The notes below the pieces were generated by a model. It searched no databases and was not told the origin of the DNA. It worked only from the letters and a program-made list of their open reading frames with translations. Positions 16,138 through 23,151 of a DNA stretch of 64,000 nucleotides are shown piece after piece. The position numbers were made by a program, and so were the translations under genes. Each line of letters begins with the position of its first letter. Positions within the stretch are counted from its first letter, which is position 1. Source of the stretch: an uncultured Roseivirgaceae bacterium (GTDB taxonomy: Bacteria > Bacteroidota > Bacteroidia > Cytophagales > Cyclobacteriaceae); contig CAYMWA010000002.1 of the NCBI GenBank assembly GCA_964393795.1, positions 15,604 to 79,603 on the forward strand, written 5' to 3'.

Positions 16138-18060
16138 TTATTGATCCGTGAAATTCTCCACGATTACATCGGTTATTTTGTCGCCTACCTCCAGGTAGTC
16201 GATCACCGCCTGCCCCTCCACCACATCGCCAAACAGCGTATACCGTCCTTCGAGATGTGGTGTTGGTGAATGGGTAATAAACCACTGCGTCCCTTCGGTG
16301 TCCTTCCCGGCGGAAGCCATGCCGACGCTTCCCGTCACGAAGGGCAGCGGCGAGAATTCAGAGCGGATCGAATAATCTTCGCTACCCCAGCCATCGCCGC
16401 GCTTGCAACCGTCCTGTATTACAAAGTTGGGCACGACCCTGTGAATGCTGAGGCCGTCGAAATAGTGGCGCTGTGCGAGGGTAACAAAATTGGCTACTGA
16501 TCCCGGGGCTGTTTCGACATGCAACTTCAACCGAATGTTTCCACGACGGGTACGGATGACAGCGTGTTGGTCTTCCGGAATTTGCTTGACCAGTGCCCAG
16601 TCGATTGGATGGTTAAATGCATTCTCCACGGGTGTCGGTTCCCTGCCTTCAATGCGTGCGAGCGCGGCCTCTATCGACTGCAGCGCTTCATTGTGCTCCG
16701 GCAGTTGAAGTTTTTTCTTTGCGGCACGCAATGCCGAAGGGTCGTTGATGCGTTGGTCGTAGCCAAGCGTCGAGTCTCCCAACGCCGAGGCTATTGTGCC
16801 CAGCACGGCAGGGTCTTCGGATTCCATCAGCAGACGCTGGTACACGTCACTGAACGGCGCATAGAGTGATTGCGGAAAACGCGGTGACTTGTTCATGGCG
16901 ACGAGGGTCGCTGCTGCTGTCGAGCGCACCACCGGTGCGGCGGCGGTTTGCAATGCATCCACAACAAAGAGATAGCTTGGCGGGTAATCCTGGAGGCTGC
17001 CTAGCAGCGCAGCGCGGGCCCACGGATTTTGGCTTTTTTGAAACGCTTCGCGGATTTCCGCTGCGAGATCTGCGTTCTGACCCGCCTTGAGTGCCGCCCG
17101 GTAAAGGTTGCCTTTGATCCGCCAGTGGTCGACCCGGTTGGTTAATGAAGAGACTTCTATCCAATTGTCAGAAGGGACGACCTCAACGATCACTTCGGAG
17201 GCGGCCACACCGACGTGCACATCCTTGTGTTGCAGGGCTTCGTACAGATAGTGTTTCATCTGCGCAAAGGGGAATGCGCGCAGGGCGCGGATGGCATTGA
17301 TCACGACCCTGTGGTCGGGGTCATTCTTGATGATCTCCTTGAGCGCTTGCAATGAGGAGTCGGAAACTATTTTGCCCAGTGCGAGGGCGGCAGCCATCCG
17401 CACCTCCGGCGAAGGGTCAGCTGAGGCCGATCGCTGAATAGCAGTTTCGTGTTTTTCGAACTCGCGGGCGCCCCGGGCAAAGTAATGGGCGGCGCCGAGA
17501 CGTGCCCGTTCCGGTTGGCGCCGGTCGAGCAGGCGGGCGGCTACCTCATTTGCCGCAGCGTCCGTTTTGCCGCGGAGGCCCGCGCGGTATAATGACCAGG
17601 CAATACCTGATATCCTCACGGAGTCTTCAAACATGCCGGGGTCGAGCTGCCACCGTTTGGTTGTCTTGCCGTACGACTGGAGTATCTGAAACGCGACGCC
17701 CGTGTCTTTCTCTTTTACCAATGCGCCGAGAAGGAGACGTTCGCATGCGGGGTGCATCGTTTGCCCCAGGGCGAAGGCTGCTGCCTTGCGTACTTCGGGG
17801 TCGGCATCCATGAGCAGCAGCCTCCCCAGTTTTTCGACCGGCTCAGGATCTTGCAGCGAGCCAAATGCACGGGCGGCATCGCGGCGGTACCGGGCATCAG
17901 GATGGTTGAAATACGGATAGAGGCTGTCGGCCATCCGGCGGTCCTGAAAATCGGCGATTTTTAGCAGTCCGGGGTCTGAAAACTTGTTCGGAGGGGCCTC
18001 CGGTGACTGACAACAAAAGAGCAGGGCCGCCAGGGCGGGCAGGTAATTGAGTCTTACCAT
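16138..18060 (-). CDS. Lipoprotein with HEAT repeats and a C-terminal cyclophilin-type PPIase
   Basis: Lipobox LFCC. HEAT-like repeats (DPEVRKAAAFALG, SPEVRMAAALALG). Cyclophilin motifs HRVVPNFVIQDG, GMASAGKDTEGTQWFITH and YTLFG. Confidence 0.88.
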   Translation of the reverse strand: MVRLNYLPALAALLFCCQSPEAPPNKFSDPGLLKIADFQDRRMADSLYPYFNHPDARYRRDAARAFGSLQDPEPVEKLGRLLLMDADPEVRKAAAFALGQTMHPACERLLLGALVKEKDTGVAFQILQSYGKTTKRWQLDPGMFEDSVRISGIAWSLYRAGLRGKTDAAANEVAARLLDRRQPERARLGAAHYFARGAREFEKHETAIQRSASADPSPEVRMAAALALGKIVSDSSLQALKEIIKNDPDHRVVINAIRALRAFPFAQMKHYLYEALQHKDVHVGVAASEVIVEVVPSDNWIEVSSLTNRVDHWRIKGNLYRAALKAGQNADLAAEIREAFQKSQNPWARAALLGSLQDYPPSYLFVVDALQTAAAPVVRSTAAATLVAMNKSPRFPQSLYAPFSDVYQRLLMESEDPAVLGTIASALGDSTLGYDQRINDPSALRAAKKKLQLPEHNEALQSIEAALARIEGREPTPVENAFNHPIDWALVKQIPEDQHAVIRTRRGNIRLKLHVETAPGSVANFVTLAQRHYFDGLSIHRVVPNFVIQDGCKRGDGWGSEDYSIRSEFSPLPFVTGSVGMASAGKDTEGTQWFITHSPTPHLEGRYTLFGDVVEGQAVIDYLEVGDKITDVIVENFTDQ

Positions 18061-18087: not shown

Positions 18088-20208
18088 CTACGACAGGGTT
18101 TGATAGACGATCCAGGCCGAAATATAGGCCAGTCCGGTCATATAGAACAACTGAATCATCGGCCATTTCCAACCACCTGTCTCGCGATAGACGACGGCAA
18201 GCGTGCTCATGCACTGCATCGCAAACAAATAGAAGATAAGCAGCGAAAATCCAACGGCAGGTGTGAACCGCGGGCCGCCGGTCTCGGGATTGATCTCCTG
18301 TCTCATCCGGCTCTTAATGGTGGTGTCGCTTTCATCGTCACCGCTTCCGATGCTGTAGATGGTTGCCATCGTGCCCACGAACACCTCGCGGGCGGCAAAG
18401 GAAGTGACCAACGCGATACCAATTTTCCAATCATAGCCCAATGGACGGATGGCGGGTTCCAGTGCTTTTCCAATTACGCCTGCATACGAATTTTCAAGTT
18501 TGTACGCGGCAATCCGGTCGTCGAGATCGGCACTGCTCAGCGATTCACTGCCCGAGGCGGCCAGCACATTTTCGCGGGCGTTGGCCAACCGGTCGCCCGG
18601 TCCGTAGCTGGCAAGTACCCAGAGTATGATCGAGATGGCCATGATAATTTTGCCAGCCTCCAGAACGAAGGCCTTCGTTTTTTCGATAATCGTGTAACCG
18701 ACGTTGGACCACTTCGGCAAGCGATAGGTGGGCAATTCCATGATGAGGAAGCTACGCTCTTTTACGCGGATAATCTGCTTCATGACCCATGCGGACCCGA
18801 TGGCTGCCACAAACCCCAAGAGGTAGAGTGCCATCAGGGCAATCCCCTGGAGATTGAAGAACCCGAGTGCCTTTTGATCGGGCACAATGAGGGCGATAAG
18901 GATGGTGAACACCGGCAGCCGCGCCGAACAGCTCATCAACGGCGTGACGAAAATGGTGATCATGCGCTCTTTCCAGTTATCAATCGTCCGGGTAGCCATG
19001 ATGGCGGGGATCGCACAGGCGACACCTGACATCAGCGGGACGACACTCTTGCCGTTCAGGCCGAACCGCCGCATGAGCTTATCCATCAGAAAGACAACCC
19101 GGGCCATATAGCCGCTCTCTTCCAGTACCGATATGAAAGCAAACAGAATGGCAATCTGCGGCACGAAGATGACAATACCTCCGATACCCGGAATGATGCC
19201 GTCAGCCAGGAGGCTTGTTAGCGGGCCATCAGGAAGAAGCGTGTGCAGATACGATGACAAATCCGAGAACAGCATGTCGATCATGTCCATCGGCACGGTC
19301 GCCCATGCGAAGATCGCCTGGAACATCAGGAACAAAATTCCGAAAAAGATCAGGTAGCCCCAGACTTTGTGCGTGAGGGCCTTGTCAAGTCGGCGCGAAT
19401 AGTTTTTCCAGGAAAGATCACTTTGGGAAAGTGTAACTTCGTTGAGGAGATCCTGAATGAACGTATAGCGCTGGATCGTTTCAGCGCCCTGAAATTTACC
19501 CGGCGTGAACTGGTACTCCGCGCGAATCTCATCAACGGTTTCCCGGTCTTTTTTTGGAAGGAATTTCAGCGACTCCGGTTGCTCGAGAAATTGGTAGGCC
19601 TCGTAGTCGTTGTCGACGCCGAGCGTTTGGCGAACGGCCTTCACCGGCGCCTTTGCCTCTTCCCAAATCTTGAACACGGGACGGGGAGGCAGGGCCATCG
19701 GCGCGACAATCGCTTTCTTGAGTTCTTCTATTCCCACACCCATTCGCGCGTTGATGGGAATGACGGGTATGCGAAGTTTTTTTGACAGCGTCTGAATATC
19801 GTAGGCGATGCCGGCGCGCGCGACAAGGTCCATCATGTTGAGGGCCAGGATCACCGGAAGCCCGATGTCCATGATTTGCGTCAGCAGAAGCAAGCCGCGC
19901 TTGAGGTTGGTGGCATCTGCCATCACCACAACCTTGTCCGGTGTGGCGGGACCATGGTGGTCAAGTAAGATTTCCGATACGATGCGCTCGTCAAGGCTGC
20001 GCGGGTAGATACTGTAAACGCCGGGCAAGTCGATCACTTCCAGGGTGGAGCCGTCCGGAAGGGTTGTGAATCCCACCCGCTTTTCTACTGTAACACCGGG
20101 AAAGTTGCCGATTTTCTGCTTGAGCCCGGTGAGTTGATTAAAAAGGGATGATTTGCCGGAGTTGGGATTACCTACCAACGCAACTTTCTGCCGCCTCGAG
20201 ATTGCCAT
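18088..20208 (-). CDS. feoB: Ferrous iron transporter B
   Basis: GNPNSGKSS, NFPGVTVE, DLPG and NMMD G-domain motifs. Membrane motifs GKSVVPL.SG.ACAIP, TPLMSCSARLP and FAAREVFV. Confidence 0.97.
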   Translation of the reverse strand: MAISRRQKVALVGNPNSGKSSLFNQLTGLKQKIGNFPGVTVEKRVGFTTLPDGSTLEVIDLPGVYSIYPRSLDERIVSEILLDHHGPATPDKVVVMADATNLKRGLLLLTQIMDIGLPVILALNMMDLVARAGIAYDIQTLSKKLRIPVIPINARMGVGIEELKKAIVAPMALPPRPVFKIWEEAKAPVKAVRQTLGVDNDYEAYQFLEQPESLKFLPKKDRETVDEIRAEYQFTPGKFQGAETIQRYTFIQDLLNEVTLSQSDLSWKNYSRRLDKALTHKVWGYLIFFGILFLMFQAIFAWATVPMDMIDMLFSDLSSYLHTLLPDGPLTSLLADGIIPGIGGIVIFVPQIAILFAFISVLEESGYMARVVFLMDKLMRRFGLNGKSVVPLMSGVACAIPAIMATRTIDNWKERMITIFVTPLMSCSARLPVFTILIALIVPDQKALGFFNLQGIALMALYLLGFVAAIGSAWVMKQIIRVKERSFLIMELPTYRLPKWSNVGYTIIEKTKAFVLEAGKIIMAISIILWVLASYGPGDRLANARENVLAASGSESLSSADLDDRIAAYKLENSYAGVIGKALEPAIRPLGYDWKIGIALVTSFAAREVFVGTMATIYSIGSGDDESDTTIKSRMRQEINPETGGPRFTPAVGFSLLIFYLFAMQCMSTLAVVYRETGGWKWPMIQLFYMTGLAYISAWIVYQTLS

Positions 20209-20441
20209 TAACTAACGATTGAAATGGTCGCGGCCTCTTCAATTCTCAGGGAGAGCTCGTAACCGGAAACACTGATACACACCGGATCTCCAAAAGGAGC
20301 TGTGAAATTAAATCGCACCGGAATCCCCGGAAGACACCCCATCTCCATGAGTTTAACTGACAGGTATTCGTCCGTAAAGCCTGAAATAATGGCGACATCG
20401 CCGGGTTGCATTTCAGATACTTTTGTTGGATGTGGGGTCAT
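20208..20441 (-). CDS. feoA: Ferrous iron transport protein A
   Basis: KLMEMGCLPG...APFGDP...LSLR SH3-like pattern. 1-nt overlap with feoB. Confidence 0.95.
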   Translation of the reverse strand: MTPHPTKVSEMQPGDVAIISGFTDEYLSVKLMEMGCLPGIPVRFNFTAPFGDPVCISVSGYELSLRIEEAATISIVS

Positions 20442-20444
20442 GTC

Positions 20445-20467
20445 TTATTTAGATTAAATTTAAACAA
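20445..20467. promoter_or_regulatory. Putative iron/metal repressor operator at feoA
   Basis: TTATTTAGA-TTAAA-TTTAAACAA imperfect palindrome lying between the promoter and the feoA start codon. Confidence 0.55.
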
Positions 20468-20469
20468 GG

Positions 20470-20500
20470 CAAAGATATGGGCGATTCCTGTCCTGTGCAA
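20470..20500 (-). promoter_or_regulatory. feoAB promoter (-33/-7)
   Basis: Minus-strand TATCTTTG (20477-20470) with TTG 20 nt upstream (20500-20498). Confidence 0.65.
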
Positions 20501-20547
20501 TGATTTGGCTCAGTATTGTGTTGACCTGAAAGGAAACTACTTGTCCG

Positions 20548-20718
20548 ATGCGCACGAAAAAAGAAAACAAACCGAAACCCCCGAAAGAGGCACCGAATCC
20601 ACCGGCGCGCCCCGCAAATGAACCGGCCGGCGCAGCGGTCGAACAGCGCGAAGATGACCGGGACGACTACGGCGGGTTTCCCGACCGTGACCTCAAGAAA
20701 AATCTCGGATGCGGCTAG
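20548..20718 (+). CDS. 56-aa small protein ending GGFPDRDLKKNLGCG (not in the ORF track)
   Basis: Manual translation: MRTKKENKPKPPKEAPNPPARPANEPAGAAVEQREDDRDDYGGFPDRDLKKNLGCG*. It fills the feoA-alr gap and stops 9 nt from the alr stop. Confidence 0.7.
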   Translation: MRTKKENKPKPPKEAPNPPARPANEPAGAAVEQREDDRDDYGGFPDRDLKKNLGCG

Positions 20719-20727
20719 CACGGCGAC

Positions 20728-23151
20728 TCAAATGCTTTCTGCCGTAAAGACGCGCTTTACGCGTTCACTTGTATTCGTCAGAATCTCATAGGGAATCGTG
20801 TGGATGCTTTCGGCCAGCCCCTCAATAGGAAGGTCTTTTCCAAAAACAATGGCTTCGTCACCCTCCCGTGCCGGAATGCCGGTAATATCGACCATGGTCA
20901 TGTCCATGCACACATTGCCAACGACAGGTGCCGGTTTTCCATGCACCAATACCTGTCCGACTCCCTGACTAAAGGCCCGGCTGAACCCGTCGGCGTAGCC
21001 AATAGCAACGGTGGCGATGGTAAGCGGCTTGTCTGCCGTTCCCTTACGTCCGTAGCCAATACTCTCGCCTGTGGCAACGTGCCTGATTTGGGAGATGATG
21101 GTCTTGAGTGTCGCAACAGGTCTCAGGTTGTGTCCCGACCGTGTCGGATCGATGCCGTAGAGCCCGATGCCGAGTCGCACCATGTCGAACTGGAACTCCG
21201 GTAAGCGCAGGATGCCCGGCGTATTCAGGATATGGTATAGTGGACGTGCCGGAAGTTCGGCCGCGATCGCATCGGCGATGGACTTGAATCGTTCGGCCTG
21301 GGTCTTTGAAAACGCATCGTGAACCGCCTCATCGGCACCCGCCAGGTGGCTGAAGATGGAGGCCACATGAAGGTTGCGGTGTTCTTTCAGCAATGCGATC
21401 AACCCGGCCACTTGATCGACATCGAAACCGAGCCGTCGCATGCCGGTGTCGATCTTGATGTGGATGCTGCACGGCCTGTTGTCCAGGAAACGGATGAGGC
21501 TTTTGAGGATCCGGAAGCTGTACACTTCAGGCTCAAGCCTGTATCGCGACATGGCCTCGAATCCCTCTTCGGCGGGATTCATCACCATGATGGGTAAATC
21601 GATGTTGTTCTTTCTGAGCTCGACACCTTCGTCCGCATAAGCGACACCCAGATAGTCGATGCGATGGTACTGCAGCACGTTGGCAATTTCCACGCTGCCG
21701 CTTCCATACGCGAAAGCCTTCACCATCGCCATAATCCTCGTTTCCGGTTGCAGGCGGCTCTTGAAATAATGAAGGTTGTGCACGAGGGCGCCGAGATCGA
21801 TCTCCATGACAGTACCGTGAACCTTTCGCTGGATGTGGTTGACGATCTTTTCGAATGAAAAGACTCTTGCGCCTTTGACAAGAATCGCCTCATCCTGTAA
21901 TGTGGAGAAATCAAAGTCCGTTAGAAAATCTTCGGTCGAGCGATAGAAAATCGAATCGGAAGGGAATTGTTCCTGATGGGCAAAGAGCACCGGTCCTATA
22001 CCGACGAAGTGATCAATGTGCGCAGCCGAAACAAGCGACGCCATTCGCCTGACCACCTCCAGCGCCGAAAGTCCTGACTGATGGATGTCGGACAAAATCA
22101 CTCGCTTTCTTTGCTTTTGCTTTTGTTGTGAAAGAAAATCCAGACTTATCTGCAATCCGGCCAGATCGTTGTTGTATGTGTCGTCGATGATCTGGCATTG
22201 GTTAATCCCTTCCTTGATCTCCAGGCGCATGGGGATGGCGCGCAGCGATTGGACACGCGACTGAATTTCTTCCGGGGAAAGGCCAAAGTATAGCATCACC
22301 GCAACGCAGTGAAAGCAGTTCTCGATCGATGCAGGATCGGAGAAAGGAAGCGTAAGGTCAAACGACTTACCGTTGGTGATTATCGTATAGCCGCCCGACG
22401 CTTTGGCTATTTGGATGGTCGCACTTTCCTGGGCGCCCCACGAAAGACCACTTATGCCCGCCTCGCGGATGGCCTGGTCAATCGCCGTATGATCCTTGCA
22501 GTATACGACGACCTTTGACCCGGCGAAGAGCCGGAGTTTCTCCCGGATCTTTTCGTCGGTATTGCCAAAACCTTCATCATGTGCTGAACCGATGTTGGTG
22601 AACACACCAATGGTGGGGCGTAATATCTTTTGCAACCGGGCCATCTCTCCTGTGGTTGAGATCCCGGCTTCGAAGATGCCAAGCGTATGGTATGCTTGCA
22701 GCTGCCACACGGAAAGCGGCACTCCGAGTTGCGAATTGTAGCTTGCGGGGTTCTTGGCAATCTTAAAGTCTGGAGAAAGCAGCTGGTACAGCCATTCTTT
22801 GACAATCGTCTTTCCGTTACTGCCAGTCACCGCGATCACCGGCGCGTCGGTCTCCTGCCGATGAACCGATGCGATATCCTGAATAGCGCTGATGGAAGAA
22901 GCTACCTGCAACACGTTGGCATCACCACCGATCGCCACCGGTTTTTCGACGACAAACTGTCGAACACCGGCTTCATACAAAGCGTCGACGAACTGGTGCC
23001 CATCGTGGTGTAAGCCGTTGATCGCAAAAAACACAGCGCCCTCCGACACCAGCGCCTTCCGGCTGTCGGTCAGGAGATGGGTGACGGGCCGGTCCCCGAA
23101 ATGCTGAAGGATTTTGCCGCCGGTGATTCCGGGGAGTTGCGAAAAGAGCAT
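20728..23151 (-). CDS. alr: Bifunctional MurF-like ligase / alanine racemase
   Basis: VTGSNGKT Mur-ligase N-half. Racemase motifs MVKAFAYGSG (PLP Lys), IKIDTGMRRLG, VRLGIGLYG, IGYADG and VCMDM. Confidence 0.95.
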   Translation of the reverse strand: MLFSQLPGITGGKILQHFGDRPVTHLLTDSRKALVSEGAVFFAINGLHHDGHQFVDALYEAGVRQFVVEKPVAIGGDANVLQVASSISAIQDIASVHRQETDAPVIAVTGSNGKTIVKEWLYQLLSPDFKIAKNPASYNSQLGVPLSVWQLQAYHTLGIFEAGISTTGEMARLQKILRPTIGVFTNIGSAHDEGFGNTDEKIREKLRLFAGSKVVVYCKDHTAIDQAIREAGISGLSWGAQESATIQIAKASGGYTIITNGKSFDLTLPFSDPASIENCFHCVAVMLYFGLSPEEIQSRVQSLRAIPMRLEIKEGINQCQIIDDTYNNDLAGLQISLDFLSQQKQKQRKRVILSDIHQSGLSALEVVRRMASLVSAAHIDHFVGIGPVLFAHQEQFPSDSIFYRSTEDFLTDFDFSTLQDEAILVKGARVFSFEKIVNHIQRKVHGTVMEIDLGALVHNLHYFKSRLQPETRIMAMVKAFAYGSGSVEIANVLQYHRIDYLGVAYADEGVELRKNNIDLPIMVMNPAEEGFEAMSRYRLEPEVYSFRILKSLIRFLDNRPCSIHIKIDTGMRRLGFDVDQVAGLIALLKEHRNLHVASIFSHLAGADEAVHDAFSKTQAERFKSIADAIAAELPARPLYHILNTPGILRLPEFQFDMVRLGIGLYGIDPTRSGHNLRPVATLKTIISQIRHVATGESIGYGRKGTADKPLTIATVAIGYADGFSRAFSQGVGQVLVHGKPAPVVGNVCMDMTMVDITGIPAREGDEAIVFGKDLPIEGLAESIHTIPYEILTNTSERVKRVFTAESI

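Follow-up and report, generated by a model that had tools for sequence, protein, structure and literature searches.

A small, predicted disordered protein encoded beside feoAB carries a conserved C-terminal Gly-Cys motif in Cytophagales

Of all that bacterial genomes encode, small proteins are the least understood, and one candidate lies in a 64,000-nucleotide stretch of DNA (hereafter the window) from an uncultured Roseivirgaceae bacterium. A short open reading frame (ORF) takes up most of the 286 bp that separate feoA from a murF-alr fusion gene; an earlier note, made from the sequence alone, had read it as an iron, Fe-S or redox effector, or else as a modified peptide. Is this frame a gene, and does its position beside an iron transporter reveal what the product does? 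The locus is laid out as follows.

18088-20208, minus strand: feoB, with FeoB_N, Gate and FeoB_C domains
20208-20441, minus strand: feoA (PF04023)
20548-20718, plus strand: small protein gene, 56 codons plus TAG (20716-20718), with ATG 20548 as its sole start
20548-20664, plus strand: residues 1-39, variable and predicted disordered, Lys/Pro-rich at the start and acidic in the second half
20665-20715, plus strand: residues 40-56, the conserved motif D-Y-G-G-F-P-D-R-D-L-K-K-N-L-G-C-G
20710-20712, plus strand: TGC, encoding Cys55, the sole invariant cysteine, which Gly always precedes
20728-23151, minus strand: bifunctional murF-alr fusion gene, with Mur ligase and alanine racemase domains

A short gene between feoA and murF-alr

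The ORF is divergent from feoA, with the two start codons 106 bp apart, and lies tail-to-tail with murF-alr, the stop codons being separated by 9 nt. An in-frame TGA is present upstream at 20527-20529 and no ATG, GTG or TTG occurs in frame between it and 20548, so that ATG 20548 is the only possible start. The product, MRTKKENKPKPPKEAPNPPARPANEPAGAAVEQREDDRDDYGGFPDRDLKKNLGCG, is 56 residues long and agrees with the earlier description of a frame divergent from feoAB whose N-terminal half is rich in Pro and Lys, whose middle is acidic and whose end reads YGGFPDRDLKKNLGCG. That description also called the frame unannotated, which holds for the ORF list from which it was drawn up but not for public data: the exact 56-residue product is already in a public protein collection, with NCBI and Logan as its sources, and homologues in RefSeq and UniProt are labelled “hypothetical protein.”

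The frame is open in all 123 unique homologous ORFs, while each of the five other frames is open in at most 23% of them. In a Nei-Gojobori (NG86) analysis of 13 core codons from 43 unique sequences, pS was 0.90, i.e., saturated, and pN was 0.147, giving a pN/pS of 0.16 for the motif; the nonsynonymous change falls mostly at two variable positions. Codons under invariant residues interchange freely (GGA/GGC/GGG/GGT, CTN/TTR, AAA/AAG, AAT/AAC, TGC/TGT). Since synonymous sites are saturated, residues are fixed and only one frame is open, conservation acts on the protein and not on a DNA or RNA element. The earlier note had proposed a dN/dS comparison and had named frame-disrupting changes in close relatives as evidence against its reading; the motif is under strong purifying selection, and all 123 homologous ORFs keep the frame open. 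These comparisons show that the ORF is a genuine protein-coding gene.

The opposite reading, in which a chance frame overlies a conserved nucleic acid element such as the feoA control region, a murF-alr terminator or a small RNA, draws on the confinement of the ORF to a short intergenic gap, on the antisense ORF that overlaps it and on the weak terminator-like hairpins close by. It does not account for saturated third codon positions beneath fixed residues, for the conservation of this one frame, or for the retention of the motif in unrelated genomic contexts. An Rfam search of 20300-20900 also gave no match (the best, at 16 bits against a threshold of 70, is a chance hit). The reading is vanishingly improbable and is refuted as far as sequence analysis reaches.

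The antisense ORF itself, of 90 codons (20449-20721, minus strand), overlies the small gene. It is not conserved, each antisense frame being open in 28 of the 123 homologues only. The Lys codons (AAR), read on the opposite strand as stop-free YTT, probably account for it, and it is considered incidental because only the small-gene frame stays open across homologues. The stops of the small gene and of the convergent murF-alr gene lie within ~10 nt of each other in ~40 related loci. Packed this closely they leave no room for terminators, so the 3' ends of the two transcripts must overlap in antisense. Hairpin-plus-T sites, both weak, fall within each other's coding sequence, at 20749-20765 on the plus strand and 20591-20577 on the minus strand.

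An uncatalogued family with one invariant cysteine

Homologues are abundant among close relatives. A six-frame search recovered an intact copy from 22 of the 24 genomes of the same genus, and within the GTDB family a narrow profile matched 115 of 301 genomes, spread over 53 of 132 genera, whereas in a sample drawn across the phylum it matched none of ~390 other Bacteroidota. A profile combining the two subfamilies described below was positive in 32 of 37 sampled genomes of the GTDB family, and a few plausible members (...IPENHFKKVLGCGG-stop) were seen in two or three other Cytophagales families. In a collection of 5.8 billion proteins, a profile built from the sequences of the genus retrieved 1,921 proteins (E≤0.01); every one is either without a name or called “hypothetical,” and Pfam domains are absent from all. 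A further 226 proteins of the collection also matched. An exhaustive search yielded 520 cluster representatives at 50% identity, nearly all of 44-100 residues with the match reaching the last residue. The gene is single-copy in the genomes of both the 301- and 37-genome samples, and a six-frame regular-expression scan of the whole genome from which the window comes revealed neither a paralog nor a larger protein carrying the motif. The pattern shows a vertically inherited, single-copy gene of Cytophagales, specifically GTDB Cyclobacteriaceae in the broad sense. The expectation of a conserved small protein whose homologues keep the C-terminal motif was thus borne out by the genus, family and database searches, and the database matches also bear out the earlier note's mention of similar C-termini in short Bacteroidota hypotheticals.

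Two subfamilies can be distinguished. Named carriers of subfamily 1 include Fulvivirga, Chryseolinea lacunae, Ohtaekwangia, Dawidia cretensis and Chryseosolibacter histidini. Weak profile hits led to subfamily 2, in which the same core is followed by a Lys-rich tail (...EEWDFxEGFGG[IL]PxD[VI]xLT[KQ]N[IL]GC[AV][SGP]-(K-rich, 6-25 aa)) and whose named carriers include Algoriphagus, Echinicola, Belliella (Belba_1227), Aquiflexum, Cecembia and Mongoliitalea. The two are connected by hhalign with 96.5% probability (E 7e-10). Neither the window protein nor 43 diverse members matched Pfam or NCBIfam; a PDB sequence search with the profile and the 23-residue motif returned nothing at E≤10, and a full-text literature search with motif strings found no paper on the family, the hits being on unrelated subjects (a DARPin clamp for GFP and HDX-MS of ribosome-nascent chain complexes). 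On these searches the protein belongs to no described family, its motif is new, and it is the founder of an uncatalogued family almost confined to a single order (Cytophagales) of soil and water Bacteroidota.

Median length is 54 residues in subfamily 1 and 58 in subfamily 2, and conservation is concentrated at the C-terminal end. Across 22 congener loci the last 15-17 residues are near-identical (D-F-G-G-L-P-x-R-D-L-K-K-N-L-G-(G)-C-G-stop) while the first 35 can barely be aligned. The selected motif spans ~20 residues, an acidic-aromatic stretch followed by F-G-G-[LI]-P, a further two or three residues and [DN]-[LF]-[KT]-K-N-[LI]-G-C-[GAV]; the 22-residue motif peptide is EEKPFDFGGLPDRDLKKNLGCG. 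The subfamily-1 consensus is E-K-P-F-D-F-G-G-L-P-x-R-D-L-K-K-N-L-G-C-G, of whose residues G, G, P, K, K, N, L, G and C each occur in no fewer than 241 of 243 sequences, and the invariant core common to both subfamilies is G..P....L..N.GC. Exactly one Cys is present in 91% of subfamily 1 and 100% of subfamily 2. The motif Cys is found in 43 of 43 unique core sequences, with TGC and TGT alternating, and in all 243 subfamily-1 proteins, and is likewise invariant in subfamily 2. In both subfamilies a Gly invariably comes before it and a small residue after it.

What precedes the motif is conserved in its charge pattern and not in its sequence: net charge is +5.5 in the first half and -1.0 in the second half for subfamily 1, and +3.4 and -3.7, respectively, for subfamily 2. 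Polybasic segments are N-terminal in subfamily 1 and lie on both sides of the motif in subfamily 2, so that Cys and polybasic flanks are the common denominator of the two. Subfamily 1 ends one or two residues past the Cys, whereas in subfamily 2 the Gly-Cys is internal and 6-25 more residues follow. With the Cys this far from the C-terminus in subfamily 2, a free Cys-Gly carboxylate cannot be an essential feature.

AlphaFold2 models built from 120-sequence alignments have no fold (pLDDT 65 and 67, pTM 0.16 and 0.23 for the two subfamilies). Residues 1-39 lack regular structure (pLDDT 58-67), and the sole element is a four-residue helical turn at L49-N52. The protein is accordingly predicted to be intrinsically disordered, a prediction that counts as negative evidence only. 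It has no hydrophobic segment (hydrophobic fraction 0.25) and no signal peptide, and should for these reasons be cytoplasmic. The Lgt lipobox of bacterial lipoproteins follows an N-terminal signal peptide with a hydrophobic core and ends [LVI][ASTVI][GAS]C. A lipoprotein was rejected here, the L-G-C being at the C-terminus with neither of these elements before it. Resemblances to EF-hand and IscU sequences were also dropped, each being based on few letters only.

Position beside feoAB

Does the neighborhood of feoAB identify the function? Within the genus and its close relatives the genes run purE-purK-(HEAT-cyclophilin)-(MutS-domain protein)-feoB-feoA, then the divergent small gene, then convergent murF-alr. 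Insertions fall between the small gene and murF-alr, and the small gene remains beside feoA. Across genera the inherited order is purK, the MutS-domain gene, (feoBA), the small gene, and murF-alr or mscS. In subfamily 2 and several subfamily-1 genera the locus has no feoAB, and the small gene lies between the MutS-domain gene and a convergent mscS, or elsewhere. Because loci without feoAB keep the position of the small gene, it is the position that is inherited and feoAB that is the variable occupant. Clustering of ORFs at ~60 loci for a conserved functional neighbor recovered inherited synteny only. Overall, the comparison indicates that the small gene is a core gene and not an accessory one.

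Two of the persistent neighbors deserve description. A ~600-residue protein with N-terminal hydrophobic segments and MutS domain V (PF00488) as its only domain is encoded between purK and the small gene or feoB (cluster c17; loci L067, L042, L045, L049 and L162-L170), and appears to be a membrane-associated MutS-related ATPase. Directly downstream of feoB, at 16138-18060 on the minus strand, lies a gene for a 640-residue HEAT-repeat and cyclophilin (PF00160) protein whose position is conserved in many genera (cluster c4). A 710-residue divergent neighbor considered as a second FeoB was rejected, since its sequence reads as an S9 peptidase of the prolyl-oligopeptidase/oligopeptidase-B type.

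The iron reading of the earlier note, generalized, is that the protein handles thiols or metals in iron or redox homeostasis, its Cys-Gly end binding Fe(II) or another metal or acting as a redox buffer, under common regulation with feoAB. The 106-bp divergence from feoA in this genus accords with this, as do the ~41 of 115 carriers in which feoB lies within 1 kb of the small gene, the operator-like elements conserved in the shared region and the Asp and Cys conserved in the motif. However, FeoB occurs in 94 of the 115 carriers (82%) and in 243 of all 301 sampled genomes (81%), leaving 21 carriers without it (E≤1e-30), and in many others the small gene is located tens to hundreds of kb from feoB or on another contig. 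A single Cys, with no His and no second thiol, offers no redox couple, and in subfamily 2 the Cys-Gly element does not stand at the terminus. The adjacency that suggested an effector tied to feoAB is therefore one of inherited gene order, and the occurrence data indicate that the small protein is not a dedicated component of the Feo transporter. The broader role in iron or redox homeostasis is distinctly unlikely.

Two known classes had seemed close. FeoC and related Feo accessory proteins are also small and encoded beside feoAB, but FeoC folds as a winged helix, has a Cys cluster and is encoded after feoB within one operon, whereas the small gene is on the opposite strand, its product is disordered by prediction with one Cys, and its presence is independent of FeoB; a FeoC-like class was rejected on all of these grounds. 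The tail of high-Mr thioredoxin reductases (GCUG or GCCG), to which the earlier note compared the Gly-Cys-x-Gly-like end, has two adjacent redox residues on a ~55 kDa flavoprotein. The small protein ends G-C-G followed by TAG, not TGA, so that its one Cys has no adjacent Cys or Sec partner; at 56 residues and predicted disordered, with no Pfam or NCBIfam domain, it also lacks the pyridine-nucleotide disulfide oxidoreductase domain. With the Gly-Cys internal in subfamily 2, the analogy fails. Each of the two classes thus differs from the small protein in two defining features.

What remains is the sequence between the two genes.

20442-20547: 106-bp divergent control region common to the small gene and feoA
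20445-20467: AT-rich imperfect palindrome, conserved, between the -7 box and the feoA start (leader)
20477-20470, minus strand: Bacteroidota -7 box of feoA, TATCTTTG, conserved across the genus
20501-20512: TGAT-N4-CTCA box, FNR/CRP-like, conserved as the TGAT-N4-ATCA type

Alignment of 20 loci of the genus reveals the conserved blocks ATTTAGATTAATTTTAAACAAGGCAAAGATATGG and GCAATGATTT...TCAG.ATTGTGTTT. The strongly conserved elements of the region can be assigned to the feoA promoter. The TGAT-N4-(A/C)TCA box, perfect as TGAT-N4-ATCA in several congeners and CTCA in this genome, has its center ~41 nt ahead of the inferred start site of feoA. This is the classic position of a class II activator and, by analogy, suggests an FNR/CRP-type site combined with a Fur-like operator; the AT-rich palindrome is where an iron-responsive repressor would sit. 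In E. coli feoABC is activated by FNR and repressed by Fur, and the placement of the box suggests a similar logic for feoA here. No convincing promoter of the small gene was recognized: across 59 loci the 160 nt upstream of it showed no consistent site for the Bacteroidota -7 box TAnnTTTG, and a sigma-70 scan found none. Via the common 106-bp region the small gene may share iron- or oxygen-responsive control with feoAB in this genus, and the remaining connection to iron is regulatory and clade-specific only. The neighboring gene is a poor guide to function, the adjacency of feoAB reflecting inherited order without dependence.

A proposed portable tail and its possible partners

If the neighbors do not define the function, what does? 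The most informative genomes are those in which the motif is attached to an enzyme. In Fulvivirga lutea its only copy forms the last 15 residues of a 279-residue alpha/beta-fold hydrolase. A related species has a second hydrolase fusion of 278 residues, 67% identical over the queried C-terminal region; the linkers differ (SNVYPSNNSYDTGM vs. SQFESESDSSTSGT) while the LPDRDLKKNLGCG end is identical. In another genus an independent fusion places the motif at the end of a 261-residue NAD-binding epimerase-like protein, and congeners of this genome retain the free-standing gene. The fusion genes, each with a C-terminal motif of 13-15 residues, are listed here.

L051, 7224-8066: fusion gene of Fulvivirga lutea (P0260)
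P0261: fusion gene
L028, 1498-2337: fusion gene

The genomes with hydrolase or epimerase-like fusions have no free-standing small gene, and a database search for longer motif-bearing proteins returned only the two Fulvivirga-type hydrolase fusions. Divergent linkers before an identical motif mean that the hydrolase fusion is maintained under selection without the Lys-rich N-terminal part. Because the N-terminal half is unconserved and the motif alone has been fused to unrelated enzymes, the motif is the functional unit. Both fusions could also be neutral accidents, with the motif retained for another reason.

The best reading of these data, at a probability of roughly 40% and thus tentative, treats the motif as a portable docking tail that bears a thiol and is mounted on a disordered carrier. 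Such a tail peptide would dock onto a conserved cellular partner, with the LKKN turn and the invariant Gly-Cys thiol making contact, either by a mixed disulfide or as a ligand of a metal or an active site. An anionic surface such as nucleic acid, the ribosome or a membrane would in addition attract the polybasic segments electrostatically, and the small protein would regulate or tether its docking partner. With no fold of its own, there is no basis for catalysis by the small protein. The single invariant Cys fits a ligand, a nucleophile and a modification site equally well.

A small disordered protein with a conserved docking tail is a familiar kind of molecule. CP12 of cyanobacteria and chloroplasts is a disordered protein of ~80 residues whose Cys-containing C-terminal segment docks into its partner enzyme in a thiol-dependent manner. 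The overall plan is alike, but CP12 has Cys pairs that form intramolecular disulfides and an AWD_VEEL core, whereas the small protein has a single Cys and no sequence similarity to it. FlgM and the glutamine synthetase (GS)-inactivating factors IF7 and IF17 are disordered regulators that fold on binding, and SSB, FtsZ and SspB carry docking tails. They too present a disordered chain with a short conserved terminal peptide, portable in principle; they differ in that there is no homology, their motifs are without an invariant Cys and their partners are known. Lack of a stable fold and a short selected motif, the features of docking-tail regulators, are both found here (pLDDT 65-67, pTM 0.16-0.23, pN/pS 0.16). 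The likeness would be one of working principle, with no common ancestry with CP12, FlgM, IF7, SSB, FtsZ or SspB.

Could the conserved residues instead act before the protein leaves the ribosome? Arrest peptides with NAP-stop and NSP-stop ends have been described in Bacteroidota (PMC10987492). On such a reading the product would be a cis-acting nascent peptide causing translation arrest or stalling at termination, its conserved residues acting inside the exit tunnel. The pattern of conservation fits these motif-stop peptides, which are likewise short ORFs with a variable N-terminal part and a conserved motif directly before the stop (PMC10987492), and in subfamily 1 the invariant 15-20 C-terminal residues reach the stop codon. 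In subfamily 2 this proximity is only loose, 6-25 codons following the motif. The described arrest peptides lie upstream of secDF or secA and have N-terminal localization signals, and the small gene has neither: a co-directional downstream gene is almost never present, the next gene being convergent (murF-alr, mscS) or unrelated and variable, and the class was rejected for want of a regulated same-strand gene directly downstream. The motif is, moreover, kept as the end of full-length enzymes. Translation arrest is therefore considered highly improbable.

The earlier alternative of a modified peptide fits the same conservation in a different way. The protein might be a precursor or scaffold whose C-terminal segment is recognized by an enzyme encoded elsewhere and whose Cys or Gly-Cys bond is covalently modified, the product being lipidated, cross-linked, conjugated to proteins or excised as a small thiol compound, with the N-terminal half a mere carrier. 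Conservation limited to a short C-terminal core with one invariant Cys, the ability of that core to work as an appendage on unrelated proteins and the end of subfamily 1 one or two residues after the Cys all accord with it. However, known RiPP and cofactor precursors adjoin their maturases and usually have conserved leaders, whereas the conserved neighbors at ~60 loci include no gene of the radical-SAM, cyclodehydratase, LanB-like, peptidase-transporter or ligase type and are instead housekeeping genes (purEK, MutS-domain, feoAB, murF-alr, mscS); without maturase adjacency at these loci, a RiPP or peptide-cofactor precursor was rejected as a class. The N-x-x-C spacing of a thioether motif was also dropped, N being replaced by F, L, V or A in some members. 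A precursor or scaffold in the general sense is unlikely. RiPP precursors, arrest peptides and lipoproteins each part from the small protein in one tested defining feature.

A related and very doubtful proposal is that the ~15 residues [LI]P-x-x-D-L-K-K-N-L-G-C-G are a portable C-terminal tag in which the Cys or the Gly-Cys bond is covalently processed. The Cys would be S-acylated beside the polybasic patch, or an N-to-S acyl shift would generate a reactive Gly thioester. If true, this would be a new bacterial system of post-translational targeting or conjugation, which in most Cytophagales would act on a dedicated disordered carrier and in the fusion lineages on enzymes. The modifiers Pup and UBact are disordered proteins of ~60 residues; Pup ends GGQ or GGE and needs PafA/Dop. 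They resemble the small protein in size, disorder and a conserved C-terminal part ending in small residues, but its end is G-C-G (or an internal G-C-A/V-S) and no ligase is linked to the gene. Pup-like conjugation of the small protein is pure speculation. The remainder of the probability goes to functions outside the readings considered here.

Nearly all members of a large family of Bacteroidota from soil, freshwater and the sea, among them Algoriphagus, Echinicola, Belliella, Fulvivirga, Ohtaekwangia and Chryseolinea, carry the small protein. Its conservation has lasted long enough for synonymous sites to saturate, yet it has had no family entry, structure or publication. Its function is concentrated in ~20 residues and one Cys, twice transplanted onto enzymes, which makes it unusually tractable. 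If the Cys is modified, this would be a new post-translational chemistry in the phylum; if the protein is simply a regulator, it would be a lineage-specific control element of a core process.
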